NCBI GenBank assembly: GCA_000004695.1 | Contig: CM000152.2 | Span: forward strand, 224,001-288,000 | Direction: 5' to 3' | Source: Dictyostelium discoideum | Taxonomy: Eukaryota | Length of the DNA: 64,000 nt | In this document: in pieces, positions 16,471 through 21,120 of the stretch | Numbering within the stretch: position 1 is the first letter of the stretch | Layout: every line of letters begins with the position of its first letter | Program-made: the position numbers and the translations under genes | The notes under the pieces: generated by a model | What the model saw: only the letters and a program-made list of their open reading frames with translations | Database searches by the model: none | Told to the model about the DNA's origin: nothing

Positions 16471-18531
16471 ATGAGAACAATCTCACAAAAACTAATCTTA
16501 TTTTTATCGAAAAATCAAAAACTTAAATATTTCTTTAATACAAGTATTTTATTACTAGTTTTTTATTGGATTTATAAAAATGTTTTAATTAAAAAAAATA
16601 AAAATAAAAATAATAACCATGATGATCATGTCAACCAAAAAATTCAAAATATTCAAGAAAATCAAAAAACCACCACACAAAATATTCAAAATAAAAGAAA
16701 TGAAGATACAACAACAACTAAAAATTATTTTAAATTATCAAATGATATTAAAATTCATGTTTTAAGTACACCAGAAGAATGTGATTTAATTTTAAATGAA
16801 TTTTATCAATCATTATTATTGAAAATGGTTGATGATAAAAATTCACCACCAATGATTGATGGTGCAGACGGTGTAATAATAAATCAACAACAAACAACAA
16901 CAGAATTACTGTTATTCCCAAATTGTAATGAAATAAACAATGATGGTTTAGATTTTATAATTGGTTTTGATGCTGAATGGGGTAATCCAAATAGTATTTT
17001 TGATGATAAAATTGATGATAAAACTACAAAAACACATTATAATCATAAAGTTGCATTAATTCAATTATCAAGTAAAAATGAAACATTTTTAATTCAAGTT
17101 TCACAAATGGAGAAAATTCCAATATCATTGGAACAGATTTTAACAGATCCTCGTTTAATTAAAGTCGGTGTTGCAGTTTCACAAGATGCAGCAACCATTT
17201 TTCAAACATTTTCAGTTGTTACAAAAGGGTATGTTGATTTAGTACCAATTGCAAGATTAACCAATTATGAAGGAAATGGATTAGCAAGTTTAGCATTAAA
17301 CGTTATGAATGTAACATTAAATAAATCTAATAAAATTCGTTGTGGTCATTGGGAGAATAAAAAATTATCAAATGATCAAATTCATTATGCAGCAGCTGAT
17401 GCATGGGTTGGTAGAGAAATATTCGAAATTATGTTCAACACTTATAAAAACTCAAAAACTGATCCAAATGATAAAAAAGATTTAGTTTATACTTTATGTA
17501 GACAATTTACAGGTGCAAGTTTTAAAAGTATAAATAAATTAAAAAATAGAGAAAATAATAATAATGGCAATAATAATGACAATACCAATAATAAACCAAT
17601 TAAAGAAAACATGTTAAAGAAAACTGTACCTGATAAAAGAGTATTATATGATAATTGTTTAATGTATAGTCCTGATGATGTATTATTATCAAGTATTAGT
17701 AAAAAGAAAGTTGAATGGTATGTTAGTAGACAATTGGCAGATATAATTAAAGAAGAACCATTATCAATTAAATTAAAATTCCAACCACATGGTGAAGGTC
17801 ATTCTGGTGACCAATTTTATTTAGCATCAAAAGAGAATATTTGTGTAGTTTGTGGTTCAACTCATAAAATTCTACGTCATTCAATGGTACCACATTGTTA
17901 TCGTCAATATTTACCAGAGGAAATTAAAAGTCATTCATCACATGATGTAATATTAGTTTGTTGTGATTGTCATGCTATTCTAGATAAAAAGAATCAAATT
18001 ATGAAAATGATAATTTCACAACAATACAATGTACCAATTGATAATGAAAATAAACAATTTATAACTGACCATACTTTATTAAAAATTACTCAAATCGCAT
18101 CAATTGTTAAAAATAATTTCTATTCAACAGGAAATAATAATAACATTAGTGAAGATAATTTAATTAAAGGTAATAAAAAATGTAAAAAGAATATTCCAGA
18201 TGAGAAATTAGAAGAAATGAAGAAAATTGTAATGGAATATATTGGAAAGGAAGAGATTAATGTTGAAGATTTAGATGAAATTTTAAAATTAAATCCAAAA
18301 CAAAAGAATGAAAATTATATTCCACATGAAAAAAAAGTTATTGATAAAGTATTGGCAATGGGTGAAAAAGGTATATTTGAATTTATTCGTAGTTGGAGAA
18401 AGAATTTCGTTGAATCAGTTCAACCAAAATTCCTTCCAGAACATTGGTCAATTGATAAAGTTGTTTGTTGTGATAATGGTCATCGTAAACCAAAAGATCA
18501 AAGACAAAAACAAATTCAAAATCAAGAATAA
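16471..18531 (+). CDS. EXD2-like protein, copy 1 (about 686 aa, intronless). It has an N-terminal transmembrane anchor, a DEDDy 3'-5' exonuclease domain, and a C-terminal HNH-like Cys/His zinc module.
   Basis: The real start is ATG at 16471 (MRTISQKLILFLSKNQ...). The track's start at 16381 is a TTG read-through of poly(A). There is a hydrophobic segment ILLLVFYWIY. Exonuclease motifs are LDFIIGFDAEWG (Exo I, D-x-E), HKVALIQLSS (Exo II), and HYAAADAWVGREIF (Exo III, Y-x3-D). The C-terminal module is CVVCGSTHKILRHSMVPHCYRQYLPEEIKSHSSHDVILVCCDCHAILDKK. This architecture (TM anchor, exonuclease, HNH-like) is that of metazoan EXD2. Confidence 0.7.
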   Translation: MRTISQKLILFLSKNQKLKYFFNTSILLLVFYWIYKNVLIKKNKNKNNNHDDHVNQKIQNIQENQKTTTQNIQNKRNEDTTTTKNYFKLSNDIKIHVLSTPEECDLILNEFYQSLLLKMVDDKNSPPMIDGADGVIINQQQTTTELLLFPNCNEINNDGLDFIIGFDAEWGNPNSIFDDKIDDKTTKTHYNHKVALIQLSSKNETFLIQVSQMEKIPISLEQILTDPRLIKVGVAVSQDAATIFQTFSVVTKGYVDLVPIARLTNYEGNGLASLALNVMNVTLNKSNKIRCGHWENKKLSNDQIHYAAADAWVGREIFEIMFNTYKNSKTDPNDKKDLVYTLCRQFTGASFKSINKLKNRENNNNGNNNDNTNNKPIKENMLKKTVPDKRVLYDNCLMYSPDDVLLSSISKKKVEWYVSRQLADIIKEEPLSIKLKFQPHGEGHSGDQFYLASKENICVVCGSTHKILRHSMVPHCYRQYLPEEIKSHSSHDVILVCCDCHAILDKKNQIMKMIISQQYNVPIDNENKQFITDHTLLKITQIASIVKNNFYSTGNNNNISEDNLIKGNKKCKKNIPDEKLEEMKKIVMEYIGKEEINVEDLDEILKLNPKQKNENYIPHEKKVIDKVLAMGEKGIFEFIRSWRKNFVESVQPKFLPEHWSIDKVVCCDNGHRKPKDQRQKQIQNQE

Positions 18532-18963: not shown

Positions 18964-21120
18964 ATGTTAAAAAATAAAAATATTTTAACTAATTTATTAA
19001 ATAATAATAAGAAATCATTTATTGGAACTAGTATAATATTTATTGCTTTTTATTGGGTTTATAATAATTATATTAAACAAATCGATAATAAAGATAAAGA
19101 TAATACTGAAAATAATAATGAAAATAATGAAAATAATAATATTGTTTTAAATAAAACAAATGATAATTCCAATATTGTTAAAAAAGTAAAATTTAATAAT
19201 TTCTTTAAATTATCAAATGATATTAAAATTCATGTTTTAAGTACACCAAAAGAATGTGATTTAATTTTAAATGAATTTTATCAATCATTATTATTAAAAA
19301 TGAATGATGATAAAAATTCATCATCATCATCATCATCATCATCATCATCATCATCATCATCATCATCATCATCATCATCATCATCATCATCATCATCATC
19401 ATCATCATCATCATCATCACCAATTAATACAAATACAATTATTGATGGTGCAGATATATTAAATCAACAACAAATAACAACAGAATCAAATGCGTTATTA
19501 TTCCCAAATTGTAGTGAAATAAACAATGATGGTTTAGATTTTATAATTGGTTTTGATGCTGAATGGAGTAATTTTAATTCTATTGATGATTCAACCACAA
19601 CTACAACTACAACATCAAAATATAATCATAAAGTTGCATTAATTCAATTATCAAGTAAAAATGAAACATTTTTAATTCAAGTTTCACAAATGGAGAAAAT
19701 TCCAACATCATTGGAGCAAATTTTAACAGATCCTCGTTTAATTAAGGTTGGTGTCGCAGTTTCACAAGATGCAGCAACTATTTTTCAAACATTTTCAGTT
19801 GTTACAAAAGGTTGTGTTGATTTAGTACCAATTGCAAGATTGACCAATTATGAAGGAAATGGATTAGCAAGTTTAGCATTAAACGTTATGAATGTAACAT
19901 TGGACAAATCAAATTTAATTCGTTGTAGTCATTGGGAGAATAAGGATTTAACAAATGATCAAATTCATTACGCAGCAGCTGATGCATGGGTTGGTAGAGA
20001 AATATTCGAAATTATGTATAACACTTATAAAAACTCAAAAACTGATCCAAATGAAAAAGATTTAATTTATACATTATGTAGACCATTCATTAATACAAGT
20101 TTTAAAGTTAAAGTTGAAAAATCAAAAAATAACAATACTGGTAAACCAAATCCAAATAAACCAATTAAAGAAAACATGTTAAAGAAAACTGTACCTGATA
20201 AAAGAGTATTATATGATAATTGTTTAATGTATAGTCCTGATGATGTATTATTGTGTAGTATTAGTAAAAAGAAAGTTGAATGGTATGTTAGTAGACAATT
20301 GGCAGATATAATTAAAGAAGAACCATTATCAATTAAATTAAAATTCCAACCACATGGTGAAGGTCATTCAGGTGACGATTATTATTTAGCTCATAAAGAG
20401 AATATTTGTGTAGTTTGTGGTTCAACTCATAAAATTCTTCGTCACTCTGTTGTACCACATTGTTATCGTCAATATTTACCAGAGGAAATTAAAAGTCATT
20501 CCTCACATGATGTATTACTATTATGTTGTGATTGCCATGCTAATATGGATAAAAGAGCTCAAATTATGAGAATGATGATTGCTAAACAATATAATGTACC
20601 ATTAGATAGTGAAAATAAAGTTTATATCACTGATAATACTTTATTAAAAATTACTAAAATGGCATTAATTGTTAAAAATCATTTTTATCAACAACAAGAA
20701 CAACAACAAGAAGAAGAAAAAACAATAATAAATGAAGATGGTAGTTGTAGTAGTAGTACAAATAAAATTTCAAATAAAAAATATAAATCAAATATACCAG
20801 AATATAAATTAGAAGAAATGAAGGTTGAAGTTGCAAATTATATTGGAAAGAAAGAAATTGACTTAAAGGATCTTGATCAATTAATTTATTTAAATCCAAA
20901 ACAAAAGAATGAAAATTATATTCCACATGAAAAACAAGTTATGGAAAAAGTTTTAGCTTTGGGTGAAAAAGGTATTTTTGAATTTATTCGTAGTTGGAGA
21001 AAAAATTTTATTGAAACTGTTCAACCAAAATTCTTATCACAACATTGGTCAATCAATAAAGATATTTTAAATAATTATAAACCAAAAAATCAAAAACCAA
21101 AACAAATTCAATTACAATAA
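18964..21120 (+). CDS. EXD2-like protein, copy 2 (718 aa, intronless). It is a tandem paralogue of the upstream gene.
   Basis: It has the same domain order and is about 80% identical across the exonuclease and Cys/His modules (DFIIGFDAEWS, HKVALIQLSS, HYAAADAWVGREIFEIM, CVVCGSTHKILRHSVVPHCYRQYLPEEIKSHSSHDVLLLCCDCHANMDKR). It has an N-terminal TM segment IGTSIIFIAFYWVY. It differs from copy 1 by a 37-residue poly-Ser insertion encoded by (TCA)n at 19321-19430 and by a Q/E-rich insert. Confidence 0.7.
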   Translation: MLKNKNILTNLLNNNKKSFIGTSIIFIAFYWVYNNYIKQIDNKDKDNTENNNENNENNNIVLNKTNDNSNIVKKVKFNNFFKLSNDIKIHVLSTPKECDLILNEFYQSLLLKMNDDKNSSSSSSSSSSSSSSSSSSSSSSSSSSSSSSSSSSPINTNTIIDGADILNQQQITTESNALLFPNCSEINNDGLDFIIGFDAEWSNFNSIDDSTTTTTTTSKYNHKVALIQLSSKNETFLIQVSQMEKIPTSLEQILTDPRLIKVGVAVSQDAATIFQTFSVVTKGCVDLVPIARLTNYEGNGLASLALNVMNVTLDKSNLIRCSHWENKDLTNDQIHYAAADAWVGREIFEIMYNTYKNSKTDPNEKDLIYTLCRPFINTSFKVKVEKSKNNNTGKPNPNKPIKENMLKKTVPDKRVLYDNCLMYSPDDVLLCSISKKKVEWYVSRQLADIIKEEPLSIKLKFQPHGEGHSGDDYYLAHKENICVVCGSTHKILRHSVVPHCYRQYLPEEIKSHSSHDVLLLCCDCHANMDKRAQIMRMMIAKQYNVPLDSENKVYITDNTLLKITKMALIVKNHFYQQQEQQQEEEKTIINEDGSCSSSTNKISNKKYKSNIPEYKLEEMKVEVANYIGKKEIDLKDLDQLIYLNPKQKNENYIPHEKQVMEKVLALGEKGIFEFIRSWRKNFIETVQPKFLSQHWSINKDILNNYKPKNQKPKQIQLQ

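Follow-up and report, generated by a model that had tools for sequence, protein, structure and literature searches.

A 64,000-nucleotide stretch of Dictyostelium discoideum DNA (contig CM000152.2, positions 224,001 to 288,000; hereafter the window) carries two adjacent genes, copy 1 and copy 2, which we read as retained, functional tandem paralogues of the exonuclease EXD2 with similar cores and diverged accessory regions. We put the probability of this reading at about 0.8. Both genes lie on the plus strand as single exons, need no introns and contain no internal stops, and are separated by a spacer of 432 bp. A preliminary description of the window had reported an intronless same-strand pair at this distance encoding proteins of about 700 amino acids, and the open reading frames of 686 and 718 amino acids confirm it. 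From its ATG, copy 1 is identical to XP_642107.2 (Q54YU5) of D. discoideum AX4 (100% identity over 100% of the length). Copy 2 is called as a 718-amino-acid single-exon gene in a second D. discoideum assembly, GCA_054883475.1, which is 99.6% identical to the window. Full-length alignment of the two proteins gives 68% identity (BLASTP E = 0), and the DNA is 88.6% identical over 1289 bp (16850-18129 versus 19436-20693). An assembly artefact or collapsed repeat was rejected, since the copies are 68% identical and two D. discoideum assemblies, as well as three other species, carry the pair. The window holds no third EXD2 copy.

The Pfam profile DNA_pol_A_exo1 (PF01612), which the preliminary description had proposed as a check, matches both copies (copy 1, E 9e-21; copy 2, E 2.4e-22). 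Among solved structures the best match is the exonuclease domain of human EXD2 (6k17, E 1e-17), followed by WRN (E 1e-14); NrnC, RRP6 and RNase D rank behind these two, RRP6 and RNase D with E above 1e-5. Named sequence matches outside the dictyostelids are nearly all annotated as EXD2, and their coverage of the query, about 70%, includes its C-terminal half. Likewise, full-length EXD2 orthologues are found in other dictyostelids, Blastocystis and ciliates. The domain combination had been assigned to metazoan EXD2; the assignment to EXD2 stands, whereas the restriction to metazoans does not, and judged by its sequences the family is clearly not confined to animals.

We examined conservation in an alignment of 14 sequences (Amoebozoa, Blastocystis, one ciliate and animals) and in a second one of 59 EXD2 sequences. 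The exonuclease motifs recognized at the outset, DFIIGFDAEW and HYAAADAWVG, occur in both copies. The five DEDDy residues are D167, E169, D239, Y306 and D310 in copy 1 and D198, E200, D269, Y336 and D340 in copy 2, and they occupy the same invariant columns of the 14-sequence alignment. Once aligned, both copies thus retain all of the catalytic D/E/Y residues whose possible loss had been a concern. D239, Y306 and D310 of copy 1 align directly to D171, Y242 and D246 of 6k17, and the full set in copy 1 corresponds to the catalytic residues D108, E110, D171, Y242 and D246 of human EXD2 (PMC6648332). All catalytic and zinc-binding residues are kept in both copies. In human EXD2 the C-segment shuts over the active site of the partner subunit and determines metal selectivity (PMC6648332); residues 332-368 of copy 1 map onto this segment and would be its equivalent. 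In every feature that can be judged from sequence, both proteins agree with membership of the EXD2 family.

The C-terminal half likewise bears the family signature, YDNC...WY, CxxC...HD....CxxCH and WR..F...P......W, in both copies, and the Cys/His cluster described earlier, CVVCGSTHKILRHS.VPHCYRQYLPEEIKSHSSHDV.L.CCDCHA, is found in both. Invariant in the 14- and the 59-sequence alignments are Y393, C396, W416, Y417, C458, C461, H488, H491, D492, C497 and C500, together with W642, R643, F646, P652 and W659 of the helical domain, which are conserved across eukaryotes. We modelled residues 381-686 of copy 1 with AlphaFold2 using 59 homologues (pLDDT 88.9, pTM 0.79). When the PLMP-like domain of the model was submitted to Foldseek, the top nine matches were all IscB/IsrB proteins, those ranked 3-8 being local matches of 43-49 residues at 0.7-1.9 A. 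The model points to a beta domain with the fold of the N-terminal PLMP domain of IscB/IsrB, a four-stranded sheet plus helix (PMC9581776). Furthermore, 9 of the 59 EXD2 orthologues match Pfam RRXRR (PF14239, by its database entry a family of IscB/HEARO proteins) at E up to 1, the Dictyostelium proteins not being among them; the only match above the cut-off is that of sturgeon EXD2 (31.4 bits versus 25). In all members examined these matches fall on profile positions 6-48 (6-46 in one) and lie directly before the zinc knuckle. Other Pfam matches of orthologues, such as Ribosomal_S14 and cytochrome c3, were set aside as zinc-knuckle or CxxCH look-alikes and not homology. Pfam detected neither RuvC nor any other domain in the C-terminal half. 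With no split RuvC found and with an architecture fused to an exonuclease, the Dictyostelium proteins are, on sequence grounds, not IscB/IsrB. We found no paper tying EXD2 to PLMP, RRXRR or IscB.

The zinc knuckle that follows has a predicted beta-beta-alpha metal-finger fold, as expected of an HNH-like domain. Its Cys4 site is kept, as are D492 at the 'N' position (invariant) and H501 (at least 90% conserved); the corresponding residues listed for copy 2 are C482, C485, C521, C524, H494, S495, D516 and H525. We take the general-base His of HNH domains to stand three residues before a conserved Pro, at the position of H840 in Cas9 (D839-H840-IVP). At this position Dictyostelium has Ser, S471 in copy 1 and S495 in copy 2 (LRHS-M/V-VP). 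All dictyostelid orthologues have Ser there, and animals mostly Asn (IRKNVVP). The register is given by the alignment of LRHSMVP with RHHIVP of the standalone relatives described below and with HYHHIVP of IscB. In this register H470 stands one position too early, and the possibility that Dictyostelium keeps the catalytic His was rejected. The preliminary description had spoken of an HNH-like Cys/His nuclease module and had suggested an HNH profile search: the fold and the Cys4 site hold up, whereas a nuclease role is doubtful, and neither Dictyostelium protein matches Pfam HNH. Copy 2 has a weak match to an 'HNH endonuclease' PHROG (E 0.007).

We searched a profile of the PLMP-like and HNH-like domains against 1.84 billion representatives and obtained 2550 clusters, 597 of them at E <= 1e-30. 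Many of the top matches are proteins of 250-280 amino acids that carry the module at the N-terminus, have no exonuclease domain and end in a helical tail with WR.HF. Searched with the C-terminal profile of EXD2, these standalone relatives score E below 1e-39 (P0211, E 2e-39), and they are 30-36% identical to the Dictyostelium C-terminal region. They also match HNH profiles: P0211 reaches 28.2 bits against Pfam HNH (cut-off 21.4), and P0211, P0175 and P0206 each have 2 to 8 'HNH endonuclease' PHROG matches. Their profile aligns with the HNH of IscB (GHYHHIVP ... N ... CPKCH) and with phage T5 SciA, and their motif is the canonical RHH-I/V-V/I-P. Because they match both the EXD2 C-terminal profile and the HNH profiles, they would link EXD2 to HNH by transitive homology and fix the register. 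Against PDB sequences, profiles of the PLMP region and of the HNH region gave nothing significant, nor did P0211 alone.

The three standalone loci examined lie on phage-like contigs among genes for a sigma factor, an RNA ligase, an intein-bearing ribonucleotide reductase and a DNA methylase and among packed co-directional small open reading frames. In a census of 201 module-bearing proteins, the general-base His is kept in 18 of 32 standalone proteins (17 with the full HH) and in 17 of 145 fused to an exonuclease. The phage-like setting of relatives with a canonical HH suggests that the C-terminal half of EXD2 derives from a mobile HNH endonuclease. For both Dictyostelium copies the most economical reading is an HNH domain that is structurally important and catalytically degenerate. 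As Ser takes the place of the general-base His in both, a second nuclease activity appears unlikely in either copy. A degenerate HNH is in keeping with the caution of the literature about the human domain, which is called only 'predicted HNH-like' or 'implicated in substrate recognition'.

Both proteins begin with the hydrophobic anchor that had been ascribed to them. Its Kyte-Doolittle mean is 1.4-1.9 in copy 1 (residues about 21-40) and 1.8 in copy 2 (residues 18-33, mean over 15 residues); each anchor is the only strongly hydrophobic N-terminal stretch of its protein and aligns with the hydrophobic N-termini of other EXD2 proteins. Human EXD2 has an outer-mitochondrial-membrane anchor at the corresponding place, with the catalytic part in the cytosol (PMC6648332), and PMC5876329 also gives this mitochondrial outer-membrane localisation. 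Both Dictyostelium copies are probably targeted to a membrane.

To place the duplication in time we compared the locus among relatives. D. cf. discoideum, D. citrinum and D. dimigraforme carry the same tandem pair, flanked in all three by UQ_con (a ubiquitin-conjugating enzyme) upstream and Dicty_CTDC downstream, and D. purpureum has one copy at the locus. In trees of the core and of the C-terminal half alike, the copy-1 sequences form one clade and the copy-2 sequences another, and D. purpureum falls outside both. The shared pair, its flanks and the trees make the duplication younger than the split from D. purpureum and older than the divergence of D. discoideum, D. citrinum and D. dimigraforme; by these comparisons it is not recent. 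The D. purpureum gene has an intron of about 90 nt inside the exonuclease domain (L003:10802-10892). Both copies of the D. discoideum clade are without it, indicating that its loss preceded the duplication or came with it. The paralogue alignment proposed for dating gave the 68% and 88.6% identities above, whereas the spacer, compared with the sequence that precedes copy 1 and with that which follows copy 2, yielded only homopolymer and AT-repeat matches and permitted no dating.

The two copies have evolved at unequal rates. In a Tajima relative-rate test with D. purpureum as outgroup, 54 changes were unique to copy 1 and 17 to copy 2 (chi2 19.3). Copy 2 is nearer than copy 1 to the D. purpureum protein in five regions, from the exonuclease core onwards, and the anchors are equidistant. 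Furthermore, the C-loop and tail motifs of D. purpureum also occur in copy 2. By these measures copy 1 is the derived, faster paralogue and copy 2 the ancestral-like one.

Both copies are under purifying selection. Their reading frames are intact in four species, and the ratio of nonsynonymous to synonymous divergence (dN/dS) between orthologues is 0.11-0.39 over the whole gene: 0.11-0.12 between D. discoideum and D. cf. discoideum, and 0.35 for copy 1 and 0.19 for copy 2 between D. discoideum and D. dimigraforme. In both paralogues constraint is strongest in the HNH-like domain (dN/dS 0-0.06), and the PLMP-like domain gives 0.06-0.10 in both.

Within species, the exonuclease core and the PLMP-like domain are kept alike by gene conversion. 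We scored a nucleotide site as species-concerted when the copies agree within every species and differ between species. Such sites predominate at residues 83-331 and 369-458. In contrast, residues 332-368 (C-segment) hold 12 paralogue-fixed and 0 species-concerted sites, and residues 489-686 hold 70 and 2. Over 90 nt, paralogues show 0-4 differences and orthologues 5-11 in windows such as those of residues 302-331 and 399-428. Runs identical between the paralogues reach 113-222 nt (permutation p < 0.0005). Synonymous divergence (dS) between paralogues is 0.24-0.30 within species and 0.34-0.49 across species, the low within-species values being due to the conversion tracts. The C-loop and the C-terminal helical domain remain paralogue-specific, as does the anchor in three of four species. 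The exception is D. dimigraforme, where the copy-1 anchor is of the copy-2 type, MFNNKNITNLFKNNKKSFIGTSIIFIAFYWVYNNYIKQ (L002:6988-7110), overwritten by gene conversion; this argues that the two anchor types may be interchangeable.

Together these results are best accommodated by two working EXD2 proteins, each ordered as signal-anchor helix, low-complexity linker, DEDDy exonuclease with C-segment, PLMP-like domain, Cys4 HNH-fold domain and helical tail. By analogy with human EXD2, each would sit on a membrane, probably the outer one of the mitochondria, and expose its catalytic part to the cytosol. Again as in human EXD2, the proteins may dimerise through the exonuclease domain and would trim 3' ends of RNA or DNA, using two metal ions held by D-E-D-Y-D. 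With Ser in place of the HNH general-base His in both copies, the PLMP/HNH/helical module may serve as a non-catalytic unit that binds nucleic acid or a partner. The pattern of divergence would fit sub- or neofunctionalisation in targeting, partner or substrate choice and not in catalysis.

How young the pair might be was weighed from the same data. The preliminary description had seen a recent tandem duplication undergoing neofunctionalisation, its divergence marked by a (TCA)37 poly-Ser expansion and a Q/E insert. The copies are indeed adjacent, share one architecture and differ by low-complexity inserts, copy 1 evolves faster, and the D. discoideum paralogue dS is only about 0.30; that low value, however, comes from conversion tracts, and the paralogue dS across species is higher. 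Recency is also at odds with a pair and conserved flanks common to four species and with trees that split the copies into two clades, so this view is largely refuted and we give it very little weight. Nor do the tracts mark the event. The TCA run has 34 perfect copies instead of 37 (Tandem Repeats Finder, 34.0 copies, 100% matches); D. cf. discoideum, the closest relative, has 6 Ser at that site, and the Ser34 tract, confined to D. discoideum, is a microsatellite event of that species later than the duplication. The Q/E insert is real, with 11 residues, but it occurs in every copy-2 orthologue at variable length, longest in D. dimigraforme, and does not serve as a marker of divergence. Both are ordinary Dictyostelium low-complexity expansions. 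Decay of one redundant copy towards a pseudogene was already disfavoured and is hardly credible: copy 1 has the higher dN/dS between D. discoideum and D. dimigraforme, and the exact copy-2 protein is missing from a protein collection, but both frames are intact in four species, in both copies each structured domain has an orthologue dN/dS well below 1, no catalytic or zinc-binding residue is lost, and conserved promoter-like blocks precede copy 2.

Another reading takes the HNH-like domain as an active metal-dependent endonuclease beside the exonuclease. Its HNH fold, the intact Cys4 site, the conserved D492 and H501, the strongest constraint in the protein and phage relatives whose canonical HH is presumably active all speak for a second activity, and H470 adjoins the substituted position. 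Against it, every dictyostelid sequence has Ser at the base position, where animals mostly have Asn, Pfam HNH does not match the Dictyostelium proteins, and the literature is guarded about the human domain; we regard a dual nuclease as quite improbable. A joint proposal goes further and is, as a whole, unlikely in our estimate. In it, the whole C-terminal half (PLMP-like, HNH and helical tail) would be a phage/IscB-type HNH endonuclease that was captured by fusion to a DEDDy exonuclease early in eukaryotes and lost its general base later in most lineages; in the D. discoideum clade the paralogues would moreover pair as heterodimers through domain-swapped exonuclease domains, gene conversion keeping the interface compatible, and the diverged C-loops, tails and mostly anchors would give each half a distinct metal or substrate preference or targeting.

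Several points weigh against our reading of two functional EXD2 paralogues. The exact 718-amino-acid copy-2 protein is missing from a collection of 15 billion proteins, and the homology search returned no D. discoideum entry for it, though the gene is called in GCA_054883475.1. A literature search on Dictyostelium EXD2/exdl2, Q54YU5 or XP_642107 found no paper. The Dictyostelium proteins have no Pfam match in the C-terminal half, and it is structure prediction and transitive homology that support the HNH and PLMP assignments. H470 adjoins the substituted base and could conceivably rescue catalysis. The anchors are short (15-19 residues) and of moderate hydrophobicity.

Set beside human and other metazoan EXD2 (6K17; Park et al. 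2019, PMC6648332), the Dictyostelium proteins have the same order of parts (anchor, DEDDy domain, C-segment, PLMP-like and Cys4 HNH-like domains, helical tail), identical catalytic residues, the tail motif WR..F...P......W and about 30% identity over about 70% of the length; in both, the HNH general-base His is substituted. They differ in being encoded by two tandem paralogues and not one gene, in long low-complexity inserts (N, S, T, Q/E), one of them between Exo I and Exo II, and in a degenerate HNH motif that reads HS in Dictyostelium and KN in animals. Copy 1 differs further by an altered C-loop with a 2-residue insertion and by an extra CCDNGH tail. The WRN exonuclease/RNase D class (PF01612), which supplies the second-best structures, has the DEDDy core in common, but WRN is without membrane anchor, EXD2-type C-segment and PLMP/HNH module and is fused to a RecQ helicase.

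Resemblance to the OMEGA RNA-guided nucleases IscB/IsrB is at the level of domains (PLMP, HNH) and not of family. Unlike them, Dictyostelium EXD2 lacks RuvC, bridge helix and TAM-interaction domain, gives no sign of a guide RNA and has lost the catalytic His; its PLMP and HNH domains are contiguous, whereas RuvC segments separate them in IscB. The standalone proteins of phage-like contigs contain the three subdomains of the EXD2 C-terminal half, down to the WR.HF tail, but have neither anchor nor exonuclease domain, keep the canonical HH and stand in phage-type gene surroundings. The HNH domain of ZRANB3 is an active structure-specific endonuclease with a catalytic His. Sequence identity to it (PDB 5MKW) is only 17%.

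The cellular role of EXD2 is debated between nuclear DNA repair and RNA processing at the mitochondrial outer membrane. Two diverged copies in a genetically tractable amoeba, with catalytic cores that are almost the same, offer a natural swap experiment on C-loops, tails and, mostly, anchors. The most interesting by-product is the resemblance of the EXD2 C-terminal half to a phage/IscB-type PLMP-HNH protein with a decayed active site; with phage-borne HH relatives and a PLMP domain like that of IscB, the 'HNH-like' region could be traced to an evolutionary origin and offer residues to test. The basic picture is unchanged: the finding is real and fairly ordinary, both genes being annotated, unstudied members of a known family.

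Table 1. Features of the tandem EXD2 locus (window coordinates) and loci of the standalone relatives
Feature	Coordinates	Strand	Basis
Copy 1, 686 aa, EXD2 paralogue, faster-evolving and derived	16471..18531	+	Open reading frame (frame opens 16381; ATG 16471)
Copy 1 hydrophobic anchor FFNTSILLLVFYWIYKNVLI with basic flanks, residues ~21-40	16531..16590	+	Kyte-Doolittle
Copy 1 DEDDy 3'-5' exonuclease, residues ~160-331	16948..17463	+	PF01612, 6k17 match
Copy 1 putative C-segment equivalent, residues 332-368, with paralogue-specific C-loop QFTGASFKSINK	17464..17574	+	Alignment to vertebrate EXD2
Copy 1 PLMP-like beta domain, residues ~388-440, LYDNCLMYSPDDVLL..KKKVEWY..L..PLSIKLKF	17632..17790	+	
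Copy 1 HNH-like Zn-knuckle, residues ~456-510 (C458, C461, C497, C500, H470, S471, H491, D492, H501)	17836..18000	+	
Copy 1 C-terminal helical domain, residues ~511-672	18001..18486	+	Alignments; helices in AlphaFold2 model
Copy-1-specific CCDNGH in C-terminal tail, residues 666-671	18466-18483	+	Alignments
Intergenic region, presumed copy-1 terminator and copy-2 promoter, 15% GC	18532..18963	+	Four-species alignment
Copy 2, 718 aa, EXD2 paralogue, ancestral-like	18964..21120	+	Open reading frame
Copy 2 hydrophobic anchor FIGTSIIFIAFYWVYNN, residues ~19-35	19018..19068	+	Kyte-Doolittle
(TCA)34 microsatellite encoding Ser34, between anchor and exonuclease domain	19318..19419	+	Tandem Repeats Finder, regex count
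Copy 2 DEDDy exonuclease, residues ~191-361	19534..20046	+	PF01612, alignment with copy 1
Copy 2 PLMP-like and HNH-like module, residues ~412-534	20197..20565	+	Alignment with copy 1, same invariant columns
Copy 2 PLMP-like beta domain, directly before zinc knuckle	20197-20355	+	
Copy 2 Q/E low-complexity tract, 11 residues (576-586)	20689..20721	+	Alignments
Standalone relative P0175	L006:6514-7317		Phage-like contig
Standalone relative P0206	L007:1540-2313		Phage-like contig
Standalone relative P0211	L008:65-853		Phage-like contig

The spacer between the genes contains GC-containing blocks at about 18708-18719, 18760-18796 and 18821-18853 that are conserved in the alignment of four species. 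Their sequences are AAGAATGACGCA; TTTCGAATTTCG...AACGAAATT, which contains an inverted repeat; and TTTCAAAGAA..TGAAAAGTTATGAAAATTAT. None of these motifs occurs within 500 bp upstream of copy 1 in any species checked. We infer that the blocks are candidate promoter elements of copy 2, and their conservation in four species together with their absence upstream of copy 1 suggests that the two genes may be separately regulated.

The CCDNGH of the copy-1 tail is conserved in copy 1 of four species and is found in neither copy 2, D. purpureum nor other EXD2 proteins; it could form an extra metal site.

The window as a whole has a GC content of about 22%, and tRNA and Rfam scans of it gave no matches. 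It contains a second local duplication, of a gene for an AMP-binding enzyme on the minus strand (open reading frame 26014-27708; Pfam AMP-binding, E 1e-50). A truncated copy lies directly downstream of this gene (24073-25186 versus 26001-26500 and 27439-28095); it is 91.8% and 88.8% identical to the two segments, with about 940 bp of the middle missing, and is called as a 230-amino-acid gene in another assembly.

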